DNA from: Patescibacteria group bacterium
Lineage (GTDB): Bacteria; Patescibacteriota; Minisyncoccia; Phycocordibacterales; Phycocordibacteraceae
NCBI GenBank assembly: GCA_038064495.1
Contig: JBBTSZ010000002.1
Span: 82,035-146,034 of the forward strand
Direction: 5' to 3'
DNA length: 64,000 bases
Shown here: positions 3,384 to 53,617 of the stretch, piece after piece
Position numbering within the stretch: position 1 is the stretch's first letter
Layout of the letters: each line of letters opens with the position of its first letter
Position numbers and translations under genes: made by a program
The notes under the pieces: generated by a model
The model's input: only the letters and a program-made list of their open reading frames with translations
Told to the model about the DNA's origin: nothing
The model's database searches: none

Positions 3384-3451
3384 GATTTTCTCCTTCCAGA
3401 ATGACTATACCACCTGTTTTTTGAGTCCCGGAAAGCCCACGTTCGTGTTTT

Positions 3452-3480
3452 CTTGCAAAAAAACACTAAATCATATAGAT
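3452..3480 (+). promoter_or_regulatory. candidate sigma70-like promoter upstream of rpsS (TTGCAA..TATAGA)
   Basis: -35/-10-like hexamers about 40-65 nt upstream of rpsS start; followed by small hairpin CCCGCTTCGCGGG in the 5-prime UTR. Confidence 0.3.
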
Positions 3481-3519
3481 TTTACCTATCCCGCTTCGCG
3501 GGCTTTCCATTGTCTATAC

Positions 3520-3867
3520 ATGTCACGATCACTTAAAAAGGGACCTTTTGTGGACGTAAAGCTCCTCAAGAAGATTTCAGATAAGAAACCAGCTTCTGCT
3601 GGGGTTATTAAGACATGGGCCCGCCGTTCCCAAATTGCTCCTGAATTCGTTGGATTTACCTTCGGAGTTCACAACGGTCAGAAACACGTAGACGTTCTCG
3701 TTACTGAGGATATGGTAGGGCACCGCCTTGGAGAGTTCTCGCCAACTAAGAAATTCGTCCGTCACGGAGGAAAGATGCAGAAGGAGCTTGAGCAGAAGCG
3801 AAAGGAAGCTGAAATCACCGCCGCTAAGGCTGCGAAGGCCGCTCCTGCAGCCGCAAAGAAGAAATAA
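3520..3867 (+). CDS. rpsS: 30S ribosomal protein S19 (with Ala/Lys-rich C-terminal tail)
   Basis: [12 protein letters not shown]...GHRLGEF motif; start chosen inside ORF 3370..3867. Confidence 0.93.
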
Positions 3868-3870
3868 TAT

Positions 3871-4260
3871 ATGGCTTCAATCGGAACACAGAAGAATAGG
3901 ATTGCTTCAGCTCGCAAGGTCACCACTGTTGCGAAGGCTGAGCTTTCTACCTACAACCAGTCACCTCGCAAGGTCCGCCTCGTGACCGATATGGTAAAAG
4001 GAAAGACCGTACAGGAGGCAATCAATGCACTCTCATTCCTCCCAAAGCGTGCCTCGCTCCCTATTTTGAAGCTTTTGAAGAGCGCTATTGCAAACGCAAA
4101 AGCAAAGGGTGAAGACGAGAAAGCCCTTCGTATTGCTGACATTCGTGTTGATTCTGCTGGTATGCTTGTGCGTTTCATGCCACGCGCCATGGGTCGTGCA
4201 GCACCTATACGAAAGCGCCGCAGCAAAGTGGTGCTTGAACTTTCATCTACTGCTTCCTAA
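3871..4260 (+). CDS. rplV: 50S ribosomal protein L22
   Basis: 129 aa; typical L22 N-terminus (KARRVTTVAKAEL style) and order after S19. Confidence 0.9.
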   Translation: MASIGTQKNRIASARKVTTVAKAELSTYNQSPRKVRLVTDMVKGKTVQEAINALSFLPKRASLPILKLLKSAIANAKAKGEDEKALRIADIRVDSAGMLVRFMPRAMGRAAPIRKRRSKVVLELSSTAS

Positions 4261-4266
4261 TTTACT

Positions 4267-4977
4267 ATGACTCATACCGTACACCCTTACGCACACCGCC
4301 TCGGCATCATCCGTGATTGGAAGAGCCGTTGGTTTGCTGGTGACAAGAAATCTTTCCGTGAAAACCTTGCGGTAGACGCTGCTATCCGCTCTTTCTTGAA
4401 GAAGCGTCTGCGTGGCATGCACGCAACTGATGCTGAAATTGAACGTTCACAGAGCGAGATTCGTGTCATCGTGCACACCGCTCGCCCAGGTCTCGTCATT
4501 GGACGCTCAGGAGAAAATGCGACCAAACTCCGCACTGAGCTCACGCGTGTCGTAGAGAAGATTGCACCAAGTCAGGGTCGTCTCTTGAAGCTCGATATTA
4601 TGGAAATCCGTCAGCCGGAGACCAATGCTGCGGTGGTTGCCTATATGGTGGCAGAAGGACTTGAGAAGCGCATGCCATTTCGCCGTGTCCTCAAGTCAAC
4701 CGTTGAAAAGGTGCTTGCGGTGCGTGAAGTCATTGGTGTTCGCATCGTGGTATCTGGACGACTCGGTGGTGCTGACATGAGCCGAACGGAGCAAATCAAG
4801 AAGGGTCGTATTCCGCTCCAGACTTTCCGCGCAAATATTGACTACGCGGTTGAGCGTGCCTACCTTCCGTACGGCGTTATCGGTATCAAGGTATGGATTT
4901 ACCTCGGTGAGACGTTCAATGAAAAGGAGCGCGCGGGCGCAACACGTCAAATGAATCCGTCTGGAGCACGCACCTAA
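4267..4977 (+). CDS. rpsC: 30S ribosomal protein S3
   Basis: 236 aa; HPYAHRLGI..W.SRWFA, KH domain, gene order. Confidence 0.95.
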   Translation: MTHTVHPYAHRLGIIRDWKSRWFAGDKKSFRENLAVDAAIRSFLKKRLRGMHATDAEIERSQSEIRVIVHTARPGLVIGRSGENATKLRTELTRVVEKIAPSQGRLLKLDIMEIRQPETNAAVVAYMVAEGLEKRMPFRRVLKSTVEKVLAVREVIGVRIVVSGRLGGADMSRTEQIKKGRIPLQTFRANIDYAVERAYLPYGVIGIKVWIYLGETFNEKERAGATRQMNPSGART

Positions 4978-22196: not shown

Positions 22197-22209
22197 ATTG
22201 TTCTCTATC

Positions 22210-22618
22210 GGTGGAGGTGCGGGGGATTGAACCCCGGTCCGAATCTCTCTTTGAGAACGAGTCTACGACGCATAGTTAGCATTGAAGTTTCAGCAGAAGC
22301 ATAAGAACGCTAACAAAAACGCTTCTACCTAGTCCTTAGTTTTCAGTCGTTCGTGTAGGAGCACGAGAACCTATTCCGTAGAATATTCCGCCCAGCTCAT
22401 CCGCTACGAAAACCGGAGTGAGTGAACGTCGCTTTGGCGAAAGCGCGGGGCTTTTACGCGAAAGCGAACGCAAAGTCCTTGCTACCGAAGTATGGGGACT
22501 TTACGCTTGCAACAGTTGTGTTGGCAAGTTTAGGTGTATGCCAGATTTAGGTGGTGAGCATACTTCCACCGCGTCGCACGTTTCTCAAAGAACGAGACCG
22601 TCAAAGCCAGTCACCCCC
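22210..22618 (-). ncRNA. ssrA: tmRNA (SsrA)
   Basis: 5-prime GGGGGTGACTGGCTTTGACGG resembles canonical GGGGCUGAUUCUGGAUUCGACGG; 3-prime T-arm GGGGTTCAATCCCCC + acceptor CACCTCC-A-CC; 7-bp acceptor with G3:U70 alanine determinant; candidate tag ORF GSKDFAFAFA-stop (about 22454..22486). Confidence 0.85.
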
Positions 22619-23506: not shown

Positions 23507-25477
23507 ATGGCTCACAATACGACACCACCAAAGAAGGAGCAGAAGACGCCCGTAAAAGGCCCACAGAAGGGAAAACAGGCGAATAAAAGTAAGGGCCTCA
23601 TGCCAGGAGGTCCGGGCTTTATGGGCAATCTCTTGTCCACCATTCTCATGCTTCTCTTGGTAATTAGTCTGTATTCACTCATTACGACTGCGAGCGAAAA
23701 TAAGACGACGATACCACTTTCGCAGATAGCGCAGGACGTCAAAGCAGGAACCATTTCCACCATTACAATTTCCGGAAACGAACTCACGCTTACGTACACG
23801 GACGGTGCAAAGAAAACATCCGTGAAAGATGCGGCAACCGGACTACCAGAAACACTCGCGACCTACGGCGTGACCCCCGAACAGTTAAGCTTCGTAGCCA
23901 TCTCCATAGAAGGAGAGACCGGATTTAAATTCTGGTTCCTTTCACTTGCTCCAATCATTCTTCCGATTATCTTCCTCGCGTTTTTGTTCTGGTTCCTCAC
24001 CCGCCAGGTGCGTGGTGCTGGTATGCAGGCCTTTACCTTTGGCCAGTCCAAAGCACGAATGACGGACCCTGCAGACACTTCACAGCGCGTTACCTTCGGG
24101 GATGTTGCTGGAGCAAAGGAAGCAAAGGAAGAGCTCATGGAGATTGTGGACTTCCTTAAAAATCCGAAGAAGTTTTTGGATATCGGTGCACGCATTCCGA
24201 AGGGCATTCTGCTGATGGGCGCGCCCGGAACGGGAAAGACACTCCTCGCACGTGCGGTTGCAGGAGAGGCAGGCGTTCCGTTCTTCTCTATTAGTGGCTC
24301 CGAGTTTGTGGAAATGTTTGTGGGCGTGGGTGCATCACGTGTACGTGACCTTTTCCAACTCGCGAAGCGTTCCGCTCCGGCCATCATCTTTGTGGACGAG
24401 ATTGACGCGGTGGGACGCGTGCGTGGTACGGGTGTGGGTGGTGGAAATGATGAACGTGAGCAAACGTTGAACCAAATTCTCGTTGAGATGGATGGGTTTG
24501 ACCCAACCGAAAAAGTGATTGTGATGGCAGCAACAAACCGTCCTGACGTGCTTGACCCAGCACTTCTTCGTCCTGGTCGTTTTGACCGCCGCGTGACGAT
24601 TGACCTGCCGGACCGTAAAGACCGTCTTGAGATTCTTGCCGTACATGCTCGTAAGAAGCCGTTTGGACCTGACGTAGACCTTGAGGTGATTGCAGAGCGC
24701 ACCCCAGGATTTTCCGGCGCTGAACTCTACTCACTTATGAACGAAGGAGCGATTCTTGCTGCTCGTGAAAACCGAAAGGAAATTACCCAGTACGACCTCA
24801 TCCGCTCTATTGAGAAAGTGATGCTTGGACCGGAACGTAAGAGTCACCTGTTCTCAAAGAAAGAGAAAGAACTCACCGCGTATCACGAAGGTGGCCACGC
24901 ACTCGTCTCATCCATTCTTCCGGATGCTGACCCCGTGCATAAGATTTCTATCATCAGCCGCGGACGCGCTGGTGGTTATACGCTCAAGCTCCCGTTTGAG
25001 GATAAAAAAATGCACACAAGGAAGTCATTCCTTGATGACATCGCAGCTACGCTCGGTGGTTACGTTGCGGAGGAAATGGTGTATGGCGACATCACCACTG
25101 GTCCAAGTAATGACCTTGCGGTCGTCACCGCACTCGCTCAAGACATGGTGGCTCGTTACGGTATGTCAGACGTGATTGGTCCCGTCGCGTTTTCTGCCGA
25201 CCGTGGACTTGGTCACGAGGCCTATTCTCCAGCCATTGCAGGAAAGATTGATACAGAAGTGACGCGCATCATCGAAGAGGCACGAGTACGAGCCCGTGAA
25301 GTGCTTGAAAAGCATCGCGGTGCCCTTAACGCCATTGCAAAGAAACTCGTAGAAGTGGAGACGCTCGAGCGCGAAGAATTTGAGAAACTCTTGATTGCAA
25401 ACGGCATCACGCCGAAATCAAAAGAAGTGGAAGGAGTTGATATCGTAAACAACCTCATCCCACCTACAGAGGGATAG
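23507..25477 (+). CDS. ftsH: ATP-dependent zinc metalloprotease FtsH
   Basis: two TM, AAA Walker [19 protein letters not shown] zinc site. Confidence 0.95.
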
Positions 25478-25499
25478 TTCCAAAATCTTGAGTGCTAGA

Positions 25500-25531
25500 G
25501 CACGCGCCAGGAGAAATCCTGGCGCGTGCTC
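25500..25531 (+). terminator. terminator after ftsH
   Basis: AGCACGCGCCAGG-AGAAAT-CCTGGCGCGTGCT 13-bp stem. Confidence 0.55.
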
Positions 25532-25560: not shown

Positions 25561-25637
25561 GCATCCATAGCTCAGTTGGTTAGAGCACGGAGCTTATACC
25601 TCCGCGGTCCCTGGTTCGAGTCCAGGTGGATGCACCA
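25561..25637 (+). tRNA. tRNA-Ile (anticodon UAU)
   Basis: cloverleaf by hand: acceptor GCATCCA/TGGATGC, D-arm TAGCTCAGTTGGTTAGAGC, anticodon stem CGGAG/CTCCG loop CTTATAC, T-arm CCTGG-TTCGAGT-CCAGG, CCA encoded. Confidence 0.8.
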
Positions 25638-25670
25638 ATACAAAAATCCCGACGCCGAAGCGCCGGGACG

Positions 25671-26144
25671 TTATGAAAACCTCTGCGTGATATTTCTAAT
25701 GTCTTGAACGAGACGTGCAAAAACTGGTTCAGGGATTTCTCCCAGTTCACTTGCATATGCACGCGCCTGGGCATGCATATGTTTCGTCTCAGCTTCCCGT
25801 TCGGGAGGTACGACGCAGCGTGGGTCCTGTAGGAATCTATCGGCAAGATCCGATACCCATGTTGCCGTACCCTTCTCCGGTACGGGGAACTCCTTTCGAT
25901 ACGTATACGCCAGTGACACTGTTCCAATGAATTGAGCACCGACATACGAACTAACATCATACGGATGACGCATAAGTTCTACAGCAGTGGAAGGACACCA
26001 AACAGCAACACTTAGGTTTGTGAACAATTCATTGCCCTTACTGGCTACACTTACCGTCAATGCTTGAACTGAAGAATTGTATCCAACACCATGTTCGAAT
26101 AATTCTTCACGGTCTCGGAAGAAATCAGGACCTATGCCTAGCAT
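25671..26144 (-). CDS. hypothetical protein (SD-led)
   Basis: 157 aa; AGGAGG 6 nt upstream of ATG at 26144; no confident family. Confidence 0.4.
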   Translation of the reverse strand: MLGIGPDFFRDREELFEHGVGYNSSVQALTVSVASKGNELFTNLSVAVWCPSTAVELMRHPYDVSSYVGAQFIGTVSLAYTYRKEFPVPEKGTATWVSDLADRFLQDPRCVVPPEREAETKHMHAQARAYASELGEIPEPVFARLVQDIRNITQRFS

Positions 26145-26233: not shown

Positions 26234-27091
26234 TCAATTGGTGAGATTGACTGCTTCCTCAAGTACTCTGGTAAAAATACCTGCATCGGATTCACCGTAC
26301 GCCGTGCCAATCTGTACGCCACATGCGCCAGCTTTGTGCATGGCAGCGAGTCGGTACCCAGAATCAATACCACCTACGCCTGTAACTTTGATACCGGTAC
26401 TCGCAAGCGCATCAACGAACTGAGAGACTTGACCAAGTGCGATGTGATGAAGCGCATTTCCGCCCACGCCCCCGTATCCGTGCGGCGTATCAATAGTGCC
26501 AACACCATTTGGAAATGTATTTGAAGTCACGATTGCATGGGGGTTGTAGCGCTTTATGACTTCAGCTACCTCTTTAAGGAAGTTGGGATCACTATAGGGC
26601 GATACCTTTAGCGTAATCGTTGTTCCTCGAACGACCGAATCCATGACATACCTTAAAATTGCCTCCATGGTTTGAATCTTGAAACCTGCAATAGGTTTTT
26701 GCTCTCCATCACCCCAGACGTTTGGACAGCCGAGATTCACTTCAACGTCTCCAAACGGCGAGAGCGCATGGGCGAGGGCTGCGTAGTGGGGTGGAATTTG
26801 TCCTGCGATAGACCAACTAATCCGCTTACCCAGAGCTCCAGCGCGTCGTCCCATTTCTTGGGCGTGGGTCAGTATTTCATCTAACCCTGGATTTGGAAGA
26901 CCGAGCGCATTGATACTCGTTCCGTCGGGATACCTTTCGTAGGTTGTTCCAGGATTACCCTCTCCCCGGTGTCTCGTGATTGAACCAATAACAATATGTG
27001 TTGCAGCTGAGCGAAGCATATCGTCAAAGAGCTTGCCGGGCCCCTTAATGAACCCGGCAGCGTTGCCAATTGAAAAGGAACTCAAATCCAT
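26234..27091 (-). CDS. pyrD: dihydroorotate dehydrogenase-like FMN oxidoreductase (DHOD/DHPD family, class 1-like)
   Basis: SFSIGNAAGF, NALGLPNPG, VNLGCPN, GGVGG, IGTA motifs of DHOD TIM barrel; SD AGGAGG upstream. Confidence 0.6.
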   Translation of the reverse strand: MDLSSFSIGNAAGFIKGPGKLFDDMLRSAATHIVIGSITRHRGEGNPGTTYERYPDGTSINALGLPNPGLDEILTHAQEMGRRAGALGKRISWSIAGQIPPHYAALAHALSPFGDVEVNLGCPNVWGDGEQKPIAGFKIQTMEAILRYVMDSVVRGTTITLKVSPYSDPNFLKEVAEVIKRYNPHAIVTSNTFPNGVGTIDTPHGYGGVGGNALHHIALGQVSQFVDALASTGIKVTGVGGIDSGYRLAAMHKAGACGVQIGTAYGESDAGIFTRVLEEAVNLTN

Positions 27092-27136: not shown

Positions 27137-29356
27137 CTACTCTGGATGCACGCTCTCCTCAGCCCGCGCCGCAGCCATCTTCAGAAGTGGACACGAAGAA
27201 AGGGAAGGGTCTTTTTGAATGAGATTCTTTGCTTCCGTGCGCGCCGCTTCTACCATGCGGATATTTTGAATCGCTTCCATCGCGATGTCTGAAATACCCC
27301 ACTGGCGTGCTCCGGTGAGTTCGCCGGCACCACGGAGTGCAAGGTCATACTCCGCGAGTTCAAACCCGTCTTTTGCGGTCATCAGTGCTTTCAGGCGGTC
27401 ACGGGTGGCTGGACCGTAGGATTCCGGAAGGGCGAAGCAATACGCCTGGTGCGTGGAGCGAATCACACGACCACGAAGCTGATGAAGTTGGGAGAGACCA
27501 AAACGCTCGGCGCCTTCAATCAGAATCACGGTTGCGTTCGGCACATTCACGCCCACCTCAACCACGGAAGTCGCAACAAGAATATCCACGGAACCATTTT
27601 CAAACTTGGCCATAGATTCTTCTTTCTCCTTCGGTGTCATCTTGCTGTGAAGAATACCGATGGTGGCGTCAGGAAAGACTTCTCGCCTTAGTCGCTCAGC
27701 TTCTGCTTTTACAGAGCGGGCCTGTACTGCAAGTTCCTTCGTCGGGTCGGGTTCATCAATACGCGGACAAATCACATAGGCCTGACGACCGATCGCAAGT
27801 TCACTACGTACGCGCGTGTACGCCTGCTCACGTTTTTCTGGTCCGAGTACTTCCGTAATAACCGGTTTACGACCAAGTGGCATCTGGTCAAGGAGCGACA
27901 AGTCTAAATCACCGTAGATGGTAAGCGCGAGCGTGCGTGGAATGGGAGTTGCCGTCATGGAAAGTAAATGAGGTGACACGGTATCTTTGCGAACCAATTT
28001 TTGGCGGTGCACTTTTCCAAATCGATGTTGTTCGTCAATGATGGCGTAGGCAAGATTCTGAAATTGAAGGGATTTGTATACCAGCGCGTGGGTTCCAATG
28101 ACAATCGGAATCTCTCCATTAGCCACCCATTTAGAAAATTGTGCGCGAGATATTTTCGTTGATTCCTCACGACGTATCTTGGAAGGGAACTTTCGGCATT
28201 CACTTCCCGTGATGAGGCCAATCGGAATGGGATGATCTTTAAAATACGAAACAAACGTAGAGAAGTGTTGCTTCGCGAGGATTTCCGTTGGACACATGTA
28301 GGCCACTTGAAGTGTTCCGCTTTTTCTGCCGGGCGGTCGTGAGACCGCTACCATATAGCTCGTTGCCGCAGCCACTGCAGTTTTCCCACTACCCACGTCG
28401 CCCTCAAGCAAGCGACGCATAGGATGGCCCTGCTCAAAGTCGAGAATGATACTTTCAATCGCACGGTGCTGGGCTTCGGTGGGTGGAAACGGAAACGATG
28501 CGACGAATTCATTTAGTGTTCCTCGGTCCACTTCCACGGGAAGCGCTTTCTCAGAAAGCGCTGCTGCACGTTGCATCTGACTTGCGAGCTGTATCGCAAA
28601 GACTTCTTCAAACGCGAAGCGTTTACGCGCGACCTGTGCATCAGGCAGTGCGCGGGGTGCGTGCATCCACACGAGTGCAGTGGAAAGACTCGGGAGGTTA
28701 TACCGCTCGAGAATCTCATTCGGGAGCGGGTCAGCAATTGTTTCATGCACCTTTGCTTCAAAGACTTTTCGTACCGCATGGAGCAGCCACAAGGACGAGA
28801 CCCCCTTACTTTCAGGATAAATAGCAAAGAGCTCTTTGCTCTCGGGCATATCTCCCTCTTTAAATAAATTGTCGTGCACGTCTTCGGGAGTAACCGGTGT
28901 ACGGTCTATCTCCGGGTTTGCGATATACACCGAGGAATCGGTTCCGGTTACTTTTCCGGTAGCACGTACGACCATGCCGTCGGCGAGCATCTTTGCAATG
29001 TAGGGCTGACTAAACCACCTCAACTTTATTTTTCCGGAAGCGTCCTCAAGCCATGCTTCGGCCATTGGGCGTCTGGTTTTCCACGACTTCTTCGCTTCGG
29101 GTTTGCGAATCGTTCCATAGAGCGTTACCTCAGTACCAAACTTCGCGCCACTGATGGTCCCGGTTGGCCCTTGTGCTTCGTAGCGGGCAGGGAAGTGATA
29201 CAGGAGGTCGCGAATCGTATGAATGCCAAGCTTCCCAAGCGCTTTTTTCTGGTCGGGTTTGAGGCGGGTGAAATGCTGTGAAAGGAGGTCGCTTGGCTGC
29301 ATGTACTGAGTATAGCGAAGGAATAGCCATGGGCTATACTGGCACGACAATGACAC
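27137..29356 (-). CDS. recG: ATP-dependent DNA helicase RecG
   Basis: 739 aa; wedge domain, Walker A GDVGSGKT, DEQHRFG, helicase C. Confidence 0.9.
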   Translation of the reverse strand: MSLSCQYSPWLFLRYTQYMQPSDLLSQHFTRLKPDQKKALGKLGIHTIRDLLYHFPARYEAQGPTGTISGAKFGTEVTLYGTIRKPEAKKSWKTRRPMAEAWLEDASGKIKLRWFSQPYIAKMLADGMVVRATGKVTGTDSSVYIANPEIDRTPVTPEDVHDNLFKEGDMPESKELFAIYPESKGVSSLWLLHAVRKVFEAKVHETIADPLPNEILERYNLPSLSTALVWMHAPRALPDAQVARKRFAFEEVFAIQLASQMQRAAALSEKALPVEVDRGTLNEFVASFPFPPTEAQHRAIESIILDFEQGHPMRRLLEGDVGSGKTAVAAATSYMVAVSRPPGRKSGTLQVAYMCPTEILAKQHFSTFVSYFKDHPIPIGLITGSECRKFPSKIRREESTKISRAQFSKWVANGEIPIVIGTHALVYKSLQFQNLAYAIIDEQHRFGKVHRQKLVRKDTVSPHLLSMTATPIPRTLALTIYGDLDLSLLDQMPLGRKPVITEVLGPEKREQAYTRVRSELAIGRQAYVICPRIDEPDPTKELAVQARSVKAEAERLRREVFPDATIGILHSKMTPKEKEESMAKFENGSVDILVATSVVEVGVNVPNATVILIEGAERFGLSQLHQLRGRVIRSTHQAYCFALPESYGPATRDRLKALMTAKDGFELAEYDLALRGAGELTGARQWGISDIAMEAIQNIRMVEAARTEAKNLIQKDPSLSSCPLLKMAAARAEESVHPE

Positions 29357-51206: not shown

Positions 51207-51277
51207 AGCGGGGTAGAGGAGAGGTACCTCGAGAGGCTCATAACCTCTAGACGCCGGTTCGATTCCGGCCCCCGCAA
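51207..51277 (+). tRNA. tRNA-Met (anticodon CAU), initiator-like
   Basis: loop CTCATAA; A1:A72 mismatch at acceptor end and A11:U24 in D-stem (initiator hallmarks); T-arm GCCGG-TTCGATT-CCGGC; CCA not encoded. Confidence 0.7.
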
Positions 51278-51287
51278 CAAGCAAAGA

Positions 51288-53541: not shown

Positions 53542-53617
53542 GCTGGTGTAGCTCAGGTAGTTAGAGCATGGGACTCATAAACCCAAGGTCGAAGGTGCAA
53601 GTCCTTCCACCAGCACC
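53542..53617 (+). tRNA. tRNA-Met (anticodon CAU), elongator-type
   Basis: acceptor GCTGGTG/CACCAGC, D-arm TAGCTCAGGTAGTTAGAGC, loop CTCATAA, unusual T-loop TGCAAGT. Confidence 0.7.

Follow-up and report, generated by a model that had tools for sequence, protein, structure and literature searches.

A conserved tRNA-Ile(UAU) gene downstream of ftsH as a probable lysidine-free decoder of AUA in a patescibacterial genome

Only between AUA and AUG does the genetic code rely on a single wobble base to tell two amino acids apart. TilS, which produces lysidine in tRNA-Ile2(CAU), was regarded as the near-universal bacterial solution and has been investigated as an essential gene; it was found in 98.2% of the bacterial genomes surveyed and was called evolutionarily stable (PMC6063277). 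That a bacterial tRNA-Ile with a genomic UAU anticodon can serve as AUA decoder is already known (PMC3575796, PMC4013482). Mycoplasma mobile has a genomic UAU tRNA-Ile2 with an unmodified U34 and lacks tilS, and its isoleucyl-tRNA synthetase (IleRS) accepts this anticodon through Arg865, whereas IleRS of the E. coli type rejects it (PMC3575796). In Bifidobacterium and Neorickettsia, which lack tilS, IleRS is of the eukaryotic type (PMC3575796), and tRNA genes with a TAT anticodon had been listed for 19 species in tRNADB-CE by 2014 (PMC4013482). Here we describe a tRNA-Ile(UAU) gene downstream of ftsH in a stretch of 64,000 nucleotides (nt) from an ultra-small Patescibacteria group bacterium of groundwater (contig JBBTSZ010000002.1, positions 82,035 to 146,034), hereafter called the window.

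We are highly confident that this gene is a functional AUA-reading tRNA-Ile. Our preferred explanation, to which we assign a probability of about 0.65, is that it is a dedicated AUA decoder that replaces tRNA-Ile2(CAU) together with TilS and lysidine. The genome in which it operates is probably free of TilS. The gene has the following parts, all of which were read from the sequence:

25561-25637, + strand: tRNA-Ile(UAU) gene, 77 nt with encoded CCA (ARAGORN, Rfam RF00005 and family covariation)
25595-25597, + strand: anticodon TAT (U34 A35 U36; ARAGORN, gene position 35)
25593-25599, + strand: anticodon loop C32-U33-U34-A35-U36-A37-C38
25634, + strand: discriminator base A73
25635-25637, + strand: encoded CCA

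ARAGORN called seven tRNA genes in the window, one of which, tRNA-Ile(tat) on the + strand, has exactly the coordinates given in the original prediction, and Rfam model RF00005 matched positions 25561-25634 with 70.4 bits (E = 2.4e-13). The gene reads GCATCCA-TA-GCTC-AGTTGGTTA-GAGC-A-CGGAG-CTTATAC-CTCCG-CGGTC-CCTGG-TTCGAGT-CCAGG-TGGATGC-A-CCA. Its acceptor stem is GCATCCA/TGGATGC, its D stem GCTC/GAGC, its anticodon stem CGGAG/CTCCG and its T stem CCTGG/CCAGG, with T loop TTCGAGT. All 21 stem pairs are Watson-Crick pairs, and the sequence reads as intronless, with 77 uninterrupted nt and an anticodon loop of 7 nt. Folded as a lone sequence, the tRNA reached -29.1 kcal/mol (z = -2.49) in a structure that is related to the cloverleaf without being fully a cloverleaf.

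The original prediction described a canonical Ile-like cloverleaf with all stems paired. The pairing was borne out, but the Ile-like body is not distinguishing, as tRNA-Val(UAC) scores nearly equally. Under a family covariance model built from 33 UAU genes of related genomes, Val(UAC) tRNAs scored 80-84 bits and Ile2-like CAU tRNAs 69-80 bits. A blastn comparison of the window gene with E. coli gave weak matches to Val and Arg tRNAs only. We therefore rejected the tRNA body, which is generic, as a guide to Ile identity or to descent from tRNA-Ile2.

The codon that this tRNA would read is in regular use. ATA occurs 174 times in the 84 called genes of the window (9.2 per 1000 codons, or 14% of the Ile codons) and is present in 64 of them. 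In the ftsH genes of 26 UAU lineages, alignment columns with ATA were filled in the other sequences by Ile (0.47), Val (0.16), Leu (0.15) and Met (0.03). The figures for ATT/ATC columns were indistinguishable from these, while ATG columns contained Met at 0.46. Hence ATA behaves as ATT and ATC do, and AUA is a regular codon for Ile that requires a decoder of its own, which is how the codon-frequency check proposed with the original prediction turned out.

We scanned for tRNA genes in those 80 ftsH loci of GTDB species genomes that most resemble the locus of the window (numbered with L where a locus must be named). A tRNA with a TAT anticodon was found no more than 5 kb downstream of ftsH in 33 of the 80 loci. 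It was present in 25 of the 26 loci with an FtsH identity of at least 62%, that is, in all of those whose contig continues past ftsH. The 26th (L031) ends 68 nt after ftsH, and the family covariance model matches the first 24 nt of the tRNA there. In 13 loci the tRNA(UAU) lies on the same strand as ftsH and starts 41-139 nt past the end of the FtsH match, and the window is arranged alike. These results imply that the UAU gene is the norm in its own lineage, and hence a clade trait rather than a peculiarity of this genome. The rarity that the original prediction ascribed to a UAU anticodon thus applies to cultured bacteria but not to this lineage.

The gene family also varies as a functional tRNA would. 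C32, U33, U34, A35, U36 and A37 are invariant across the 33 aligned UAU genes; position 38 is C in 26, A in five and U in two. Standard pairs fill 99.4% of the pair cells, compared with 69% after shuffling and 29-47% when the partners were slid, and changes on both sides, i.e. compensatory changes, occur in 17 of the 21 stem pairs. None of 500 shuffles reached the observed percentage paired or the covariation score, and two of 500 reached the number of pairs changed on both sides. The invariant UAU loop together with the covariation indicates a functional family under purifying selection, not a pseudogene or a sporadic mutation. In 12 of the 32 distinct family members (L008, L009, L011-L013, L018, L020 and L022-L026) the first pair is C1-G72 and no CCA is encoded; the window copy has G1-C72 with CCA. 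A first pair of C1-G72 is unusual for bacterial tRNAs.

The surroundings of the gene are conserved as well. In the window they comprise:

23507-25477, + strand: ftsH (Pfam AAA and Peptidase_M41); the tRNA starts 84 nt past its stop codon
22985-23437, - strand: smpB (Pfam SmpB), on the side of ftsH where other lineages of the Candidate Phyla Radiation (CPR) have tilS
22209-22618, - strand: transfer-messenger RNA (tmRNA; Rfam RF00023, 105.3 bits), with long unaligned insertions
27137-29302, - strand: recG (Pfam RecG_wedge, DEAD and Helicase_C), downstream neighbour of the tRNA

By tblastn, smpB was found in 22 of the UAU-bearing loci, and recG lies downstream of the tRNA in 17 UAU-bearing relatives. 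The tmRNA of the window was missed by ARAGORN, which does call tmRNAs at the equivalent place in relatives. The block of tmRNA-smpB, ftsH, tRNA-Ile(UAU) and recG is thus conserved among relatives, which argues against a mobile element.

The FtsH of the window is identical, residue for residue, to that of the ENA contig Hain_H41_01um_R3_16 (Hainich groundwater well H41, 0.1-um fraction), where the window spans roughly 132,419-196,418. Among GTDB species representatives, its nearest FtsH relatives are a 'Patescibacteria group bacterium' (78% identity) and a Kaiserbacteria metagenome-assembled genome (MAG; 77%), followed by MAGs of Taylor-, Nomura- and other Paceibacteria/Parcubacteria. In a neighbour-joining tree of FtsH, the 34 UAU tips and L031 form one clade, next to the tilS-bearing L038, L039 and L045.

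A different arrangement is found in these and other relatives. In 10 CPR and Chloroflexi loci with an FtsH identity of 51-57%, ftsH is directly preceded by an open reading frame (ORF) that has the PP-loop motif SGGxDS; Moranbacteria, a 'Parcubacteria group' MAG, Doudnabacteria, Kazan, Peregrinibacteria and one Thermomicrobiaceae are among them. The five of these ORFs that were scanned against Pfam matched PF01171 at 1e-54 to 1e-60, and that of L039 also matched the TilS substrate-binding domain PF09179. Two long JGI contigs (L089 and L090) provided further tilS-ftsH pairs. None of the 10 tilS-ftsH loci contains a tRNA(UAU), and a tblastn search with CPR TilS proteins found no TilS homologue in the 33 UAU loci or in the window. 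Hence, tilS-linked and UAU-linked ftsH loci do not overlap among the 80 (Fisher p = 0.008, ignoring phylogenetic non-independence). When a Moranbacteria-like TilS was used as query, all named sequences among the best 120 of 5949 TilS homologues were from Moranbacteria or the 'Parcubacteria group'.

A tRNA(CAU) follows ftsH in three of the tilS loci, at +142 nt in L054, +1070 in L051 and +2115 in L039. The tRNA(CAU) of L054 is 85.9% identical to an E. coli gene that is annotated as tRNA-Ile and whose anticodon reads CAT. In both L054 and L039 the whole anticodon arm equals the Ile2 arm of E. coli, GCGACTCATAATCGC; these tRNAs are bona fide TilS substrates. The arm of the window gene, CGGAG/CTCCG, differs from the Ile2 arm GCGACUCAUAAUCGC that is conserved in E. 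coli, L039 and L054. In short, the tilS-bearing CPR have tilS-ftsH, followed in some by tRNA-Ile2(CAU), whereas the clade of the window has ftsH-tRNA-Ile(UAU). tilS and its substrate gene are linked in yet another way in the Kazan-group locus L053, where three tRNA(CAU) genes, one of initiator type, one Ile2-like and one Met-like, lie within about 1.3 kb (3451-4756), and tilS starts about 100 nt downstream of this cluster and is followed by ftsH.

The window gene therefore has both likenesses to and differences from the canonical system. Like tRNA-Ile2(CAU) with TilS, and like its 2-aminovaleramididine (ava2C) variant (PMC11938285), it would read AUA as Ile and not AUG, and it occupies the same genomic neighbourhood as the canonical system of CPR relatives (tilS-ftsH-tRNA-Ile2). 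Unlike tRNA-Ile2(CAU), it has an encoded TAT and a different anticodon arm, and no TilS gene was found nearby. With the anticodon encoded as TAT, no modification of C34 is needed.

We also compared the use of ATA in ftsH between lineages (L019, L012, L014 and L026 versus L039, L054 and L084). In pooled ftsH at equal GC content of third codon positions (GC3), ATA made up 20% of the Ile codons in UAU lineages versus 14% in tilS lineages, in a small sample. The highest share, again from a small sample, was 59% in one Taylorbacteria ftsH. Three UAU lineages with a GC3 above 0.6 (L012, L014 and L026) had 25-27% ATA, and other high-GC3 UAU lineages 2-11%; three tilS lineages with a GC3 above 0.55 (L039, L054 and L084; n = 3) had no ATA in ftsH.

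Within the genome itself, Pfam tables of about 100 called genes, covering the window and flanks of about 6 kb (upstream) and 10 kb (downstream), contained no PF01171. In particular, tilS is missing directly upstream of the window's ftsH, its position in tilS-bearing CPR relatives. The original prediction had asked for a second CAU tRNA with Ile identity; within the window, two tRNA(CAU) genes were seen, one of initiator and one of elongator type, and neither is Ile2-like:

51207-51278, + strand: tRNA(CAU) of initiator type, with an A1.A72 mismatch and A11-U24 (ARAGORN and sequence); not an Ile2 candidate
53542-53615, + strand: tRNA(CAU) of elongator type (ARAGORN; Rfam, 64.5 bits); the window's only candidate for tRNA-Ile2(CAU)

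The acceptor stem (G4-C69, G5-C68) and the anticodon arm of the second gene are unlike those of Ile2 in E. coli, L039 and L054. It was rejected as an Ile2 on this alignment; classification against E. coli by blastn gave no match. From its sequence it is most likely an elongator tRNA-Met. The published bin of a cultured Paceibacteria relative has the same arrangement of tRNA(cat)...tRNA(cat)-tRNA-Asp, and the annotation table of this relative shows no third CAU tRNA and no K04075 among the genes listed. All this fits a TilS-free genome but is no proof of one. The same bin illustrates the risk of relying on names: its one gene labelled 'tRNA(Ile)-lysidine synthase', PMX_810_sub_00091 (Supplementary Table S2, PMC10936435), has no K04075 call, and its UniRef90 and Pfam assignments identify it as an N-acetyl sugar amidotransferase. 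Counts of TilS presence and absence in CPR that are based on gene names can thus mislead.

Both CAU genes have some unusual features. The initiator-like tRNA has A1.A72 instead of C1.A72, ends in ACA rather than CCA, and the foot of its anticodon stem contains just two G-C pairs (A29-U41). The T-loop of the elongator-type tRNA, UGCAAGU, has G in place of the near-universal U55, and its D-loop, AGGUAGUUA, has A in place of the expected G18, as if the two partners of the G18:U55 tertiary contact had co-varied. Its anticodon stem, moreover, starts from an A31.A39 mismatch at the foot.

No IleRS was found in the window and its flanks (Pfam) or in the fetched loci (search for KMSKS/HIGH motifs). 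According to published annotation tables, the IleRS of two cultured Paceibacteria relatives have PF19302 and no zinc-finger domain. We take PF19302 to be the C-terminus of type-2 IleRS, and these enzymes thereby favour a solution like that of Bifidobacterium. The Mollicutes, named as the example in the original prediction, are an apt comparison for the mechanism, but the tilS-less Bifidobacterium and Neorickettsia, with their eukaryote-type IleRS, may be the better parallel.

As in M. mobile, the AUA decoder has a genomic UAU anticodon followed by A37 (which in M. mobile is N6-threonylcarbamoyladenosine, t6A), the genome is reduced, and tilS, absent there, is probably absent here. The two cases differ in that M. 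mobile represents a single-species event in Mollicutes, with a Trp-to-Arg change (R865) in a type-1 IleRS, whereas the present gene is a trait of a deep clade in which IleRS is probably of type 2. Moreover, the state of U34 and ribosomal proofreading are features shown for M. mobile, and most members of the window family have C38. With Bifidobacterium and Neorickettsia the locus would share the loss of tilS by a whole lineage, the UAU tRNA and an IleRS of archaeal/eukaryotic type, the latter as judged from the annotation tables of relatives. It differs from them in that it belongs to an unrelated phylum, and in that the linkage to ftsH and the contrast with tilS-ftsH-tRNA-Ile2(CAU) are specific to CPR. 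In the eukaryotic cytoplasmic tRNA-Ile(UAU), too, UAU reads AUA, and charging is by a type-2 IleRS, as is probable here, but that tRNA has an intron and pseudouridines 34 and 36. The window gene is intronless, and no enzyme for pseudouridine 34 or 36 was identified for its tRNA. Among the archaea, Nanoarchaeum and Korarchaeum are exceptions that are said to use UAU instead of agmatidine.

A genuine and maintained UAU tRNA, in combination with AUA as a normal Ile codon, indicates a route of AUA decoding that does not involve lysidine. The alternative decoding strategy suggested in the original prediction is supported to that extent. We propose that this minor Ile tRNA reads AUA directly, by Watson-Crick pairing through its encoded U34-A35-U36. 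An ancestor of the clade would have converted or replaced an ftsH-linked tRNA-Ile2(CAU) by a UAU version and lost tilS. Charging may be by a type-2 (archaeal/eukaryote-like) IleRS to which U34 is acceptable; the same has been proposed for Bifidobacterium and Neorickettsia. A37 presumably carries t6A; this modification is expected at A37 in tRNAs that read ANN codons. U34 would be unmodified, as in M. mobile, or carry a novel modification. Competition from tRNA-Met and the ribosome could limit misreading of AUG, and the unusual, nearly fixed C32/C38 might contribute. In canonical Ile2 genes position 38 is A, whereas the UAU family mostly has C38 with a fixed C32; that C32/C38 tunes the strength of decoding is speculation.

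Extended beyond this genome, the proposal is that one branch of Paceibacteria/Parcubacteria permanently dropped TilS and lysidine in one switch at the ftsH locus, from tilS-ftsH-tRNA-Ile2(CAU) to ftsH-tRNA-Ile(UAU), a statement that we favour by a small margin over its denial. With about the same slight preference, we take the branch to comprise orders including Kaiser-, Taylor-, Nomura- and Jorgensenbacteria, probably thousands of species, and to exclude Moranbacteria-like lineages. Discrimination between AUA and AUG in the clade might then lie in the design of the C32/C38 loop, in IleRS or in a U34 modification yet to be discovered. A single origin of the UAU clade is the simplest reading of the FtsH tree.

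If true, the clade would far exceed any other natural group of bacteria reading AUA with a U34 tRNA, and this large, uncultivated radiation would show lysidine to be dispensable on a grand scale. The tilS-bearing and UAU-bearing sister lineages would form a natural series for studying the switch, and a cultivable relative, Minisyncoccus archaeiphilus, would allow the chemistry of U34 and the fidelity at AUG to be measured. While the mechanism has precedent, the scale of the replacement and the cultured relative give added value. In the searchable library, no paper links lysidine with Patescibacteria or Candidate Phyla Radiation, and matches to TilS with Patescibacteria or Parcubacteria concerned other meanings of the word, e.g. 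tumour-infiltrating lymphocytes; the lineage-wide conservation and the syntenic contrast with tilS-ftsH-tRNA-Ile2(CAU) appear to be undescribed, though they may be visible in marker-gene tables. In practical terms, the finding bears on genome-completeness markers that include TilS, and on annotation, as in the spurious lysidine-synthase label.

Several points weigh against this interpretation. The absence of tilS was observed over about 84 kb of a 321-kb contig. Many non-UAU loci, e.g. those of Chloroflexi, are also without an ftsH-adjacent tilS while surely having tilS elsewhere, so that absence from this position is by itself weak evidence. The statistic for the mutual exclusion of tilS and UAU does not account for shared ancestry among the loci. 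Bootstrap support for the exact single UAU clade was 6/30, and a single origin is therefore not demonstrated. The type of IleRS was read from two cultured relatives and not from this genome. The tRNA has a generic body that forms no specific cluster with Ile2(CAU) genes, which leaves position as the ground for descent in situ from tRNA-Ile2. Finally, tilS and tRNA-Ile(TAT) coexist in Lactobacillus casei, Cyanothece and Ferrimonas (PMC3575796).

Of the alternatives, the one that survives best keeps the role of the tRNA as AUA decoder but has U34 enzymatically modified so that reading is restricted to AUA; we regard it as possible, though rather doubtful. An unmodified U34 normally wobbles to G. 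According to PMC3895270, eukaryotes (pseudouridine 34) and haloarchaeal mutants (5-cyanomethyluridine, cnm5U) modify U34 of tRNA-Ile(UAU). Moreover, just past the end of the window lies a gene for a TrhO-like U34 hydroxylase, which shows that chemistry for U34 modification exists in this genome:

L004 20946-21662, about 5.6 kb past the 3' end of the window: TrhO-like gene (UPF0176_N, Rhodanese and Rhodanese_C)

Yet M. mobile, the sole bacterial case analysed, has an unmodified U34 (PMC3575796), a modification of the 5-oxyuridine (xo5U) type would widen reading to G and U instead of narrowing it, and neither the window nor related loci have a U34-modification gene linked to the tRNA.

It is less probable, and in our judgement unlikely, that this genome has redundant decoders, with tilS and tRNA-Ile2(CAU) elsewhere on the chromosome and the UAU tRNA as an auxiliary or transitional component. 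Such genomes exist, as proposed for L. casei, Cyanothece PCC 7424 and Ferrimonas balearica, where a TAT gene and tilS occur together (PMC3575796), possibly as a transitional state on the same evolutionary path; this alternative also gains from the 84 kb covered and from the many bacteria in which tilS is not adjacent to ftsH. In the CPR loci examined, however, the two never co-occur: tilS-linked and UAU-linked ftsH loci exclude each other among all 80, and the UAU gene sits in the slot where tilS-bearing relatives have tRNA-Ile2(CAU). The invariance of UAU across a deep clade fits an essential sole decoder, the sole elongator-type CAU tRNA of the window is not Ile2-like, and the related bin has two tRNA(cat) in its cat-cat-Asp arrangement and no K04075 among the genes listed.

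A mobile-element or phage-borne, decaying or mis-called tRNA (a mutated Val or Met) without a core role is highly improbable and effectively refuted by the conservation data: although phages and genomic islands often carry tRNAs for rare codons, the body is as Val(UAC)-like as Ile2-like, and two genes directly downstream are specific to this genome, the synteny of smpB, ftsH and recG extends across the clade down to about 50% FtsH identity, compensatory covariation is pervasive and the anticodon loop invariant, no integrase or repeat was found near the tRNA in the gene tables of the window, and AUA is used in 64 of 84 genes.

The window has a few further features around the tRNA:

25498-25531, + strand: perfect 15-bp hairpin with a GAAA tetraloop and no T tail, between ftsH and the tRNA
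25646-25669, - strand: terminator-like hairpin with a T run, which ends the 157-aa gene, 9 nt beyond the 3' end of the tRNA
25671-26144, - strand: ORF of 157 aa without a Pfam match, convergent to the tRNA, between the tRNA and recG
26234-27091, - strand: gene of the DHO_dh family (PF01180), between the tRNA and recG

The first hairpin may, from its sequence, be the terminator of ftsH. A promoter scan found no sigma-70-like promoter ahead of the tRNA. By tblastn, no homologue of the 157-aa ORF or of the DHO_dh-like gene was found among the 80 related loci; both were therefore rejected as tRNA-linked factors, and they appear to be an insertion specific to the genome of the window.

The gene tables of the window and its flanks are consistent with Patescibacteria (CPR): the ribosomal-protein operon lacks L30, a cluster for a type IV pilus is present, and many genes are small and unannotated. 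In the window, L30 is not encoded between S5 and L15, a usual finding in CPR. The S10 ribosomal-protein operon is split between rplB (52-855) and rpsS (3520-3867) by three genes, one encoding an unknown protein of 275 aa and the other two, on the opposite strand, encoding a NUDIX and a DUF3298 protein.

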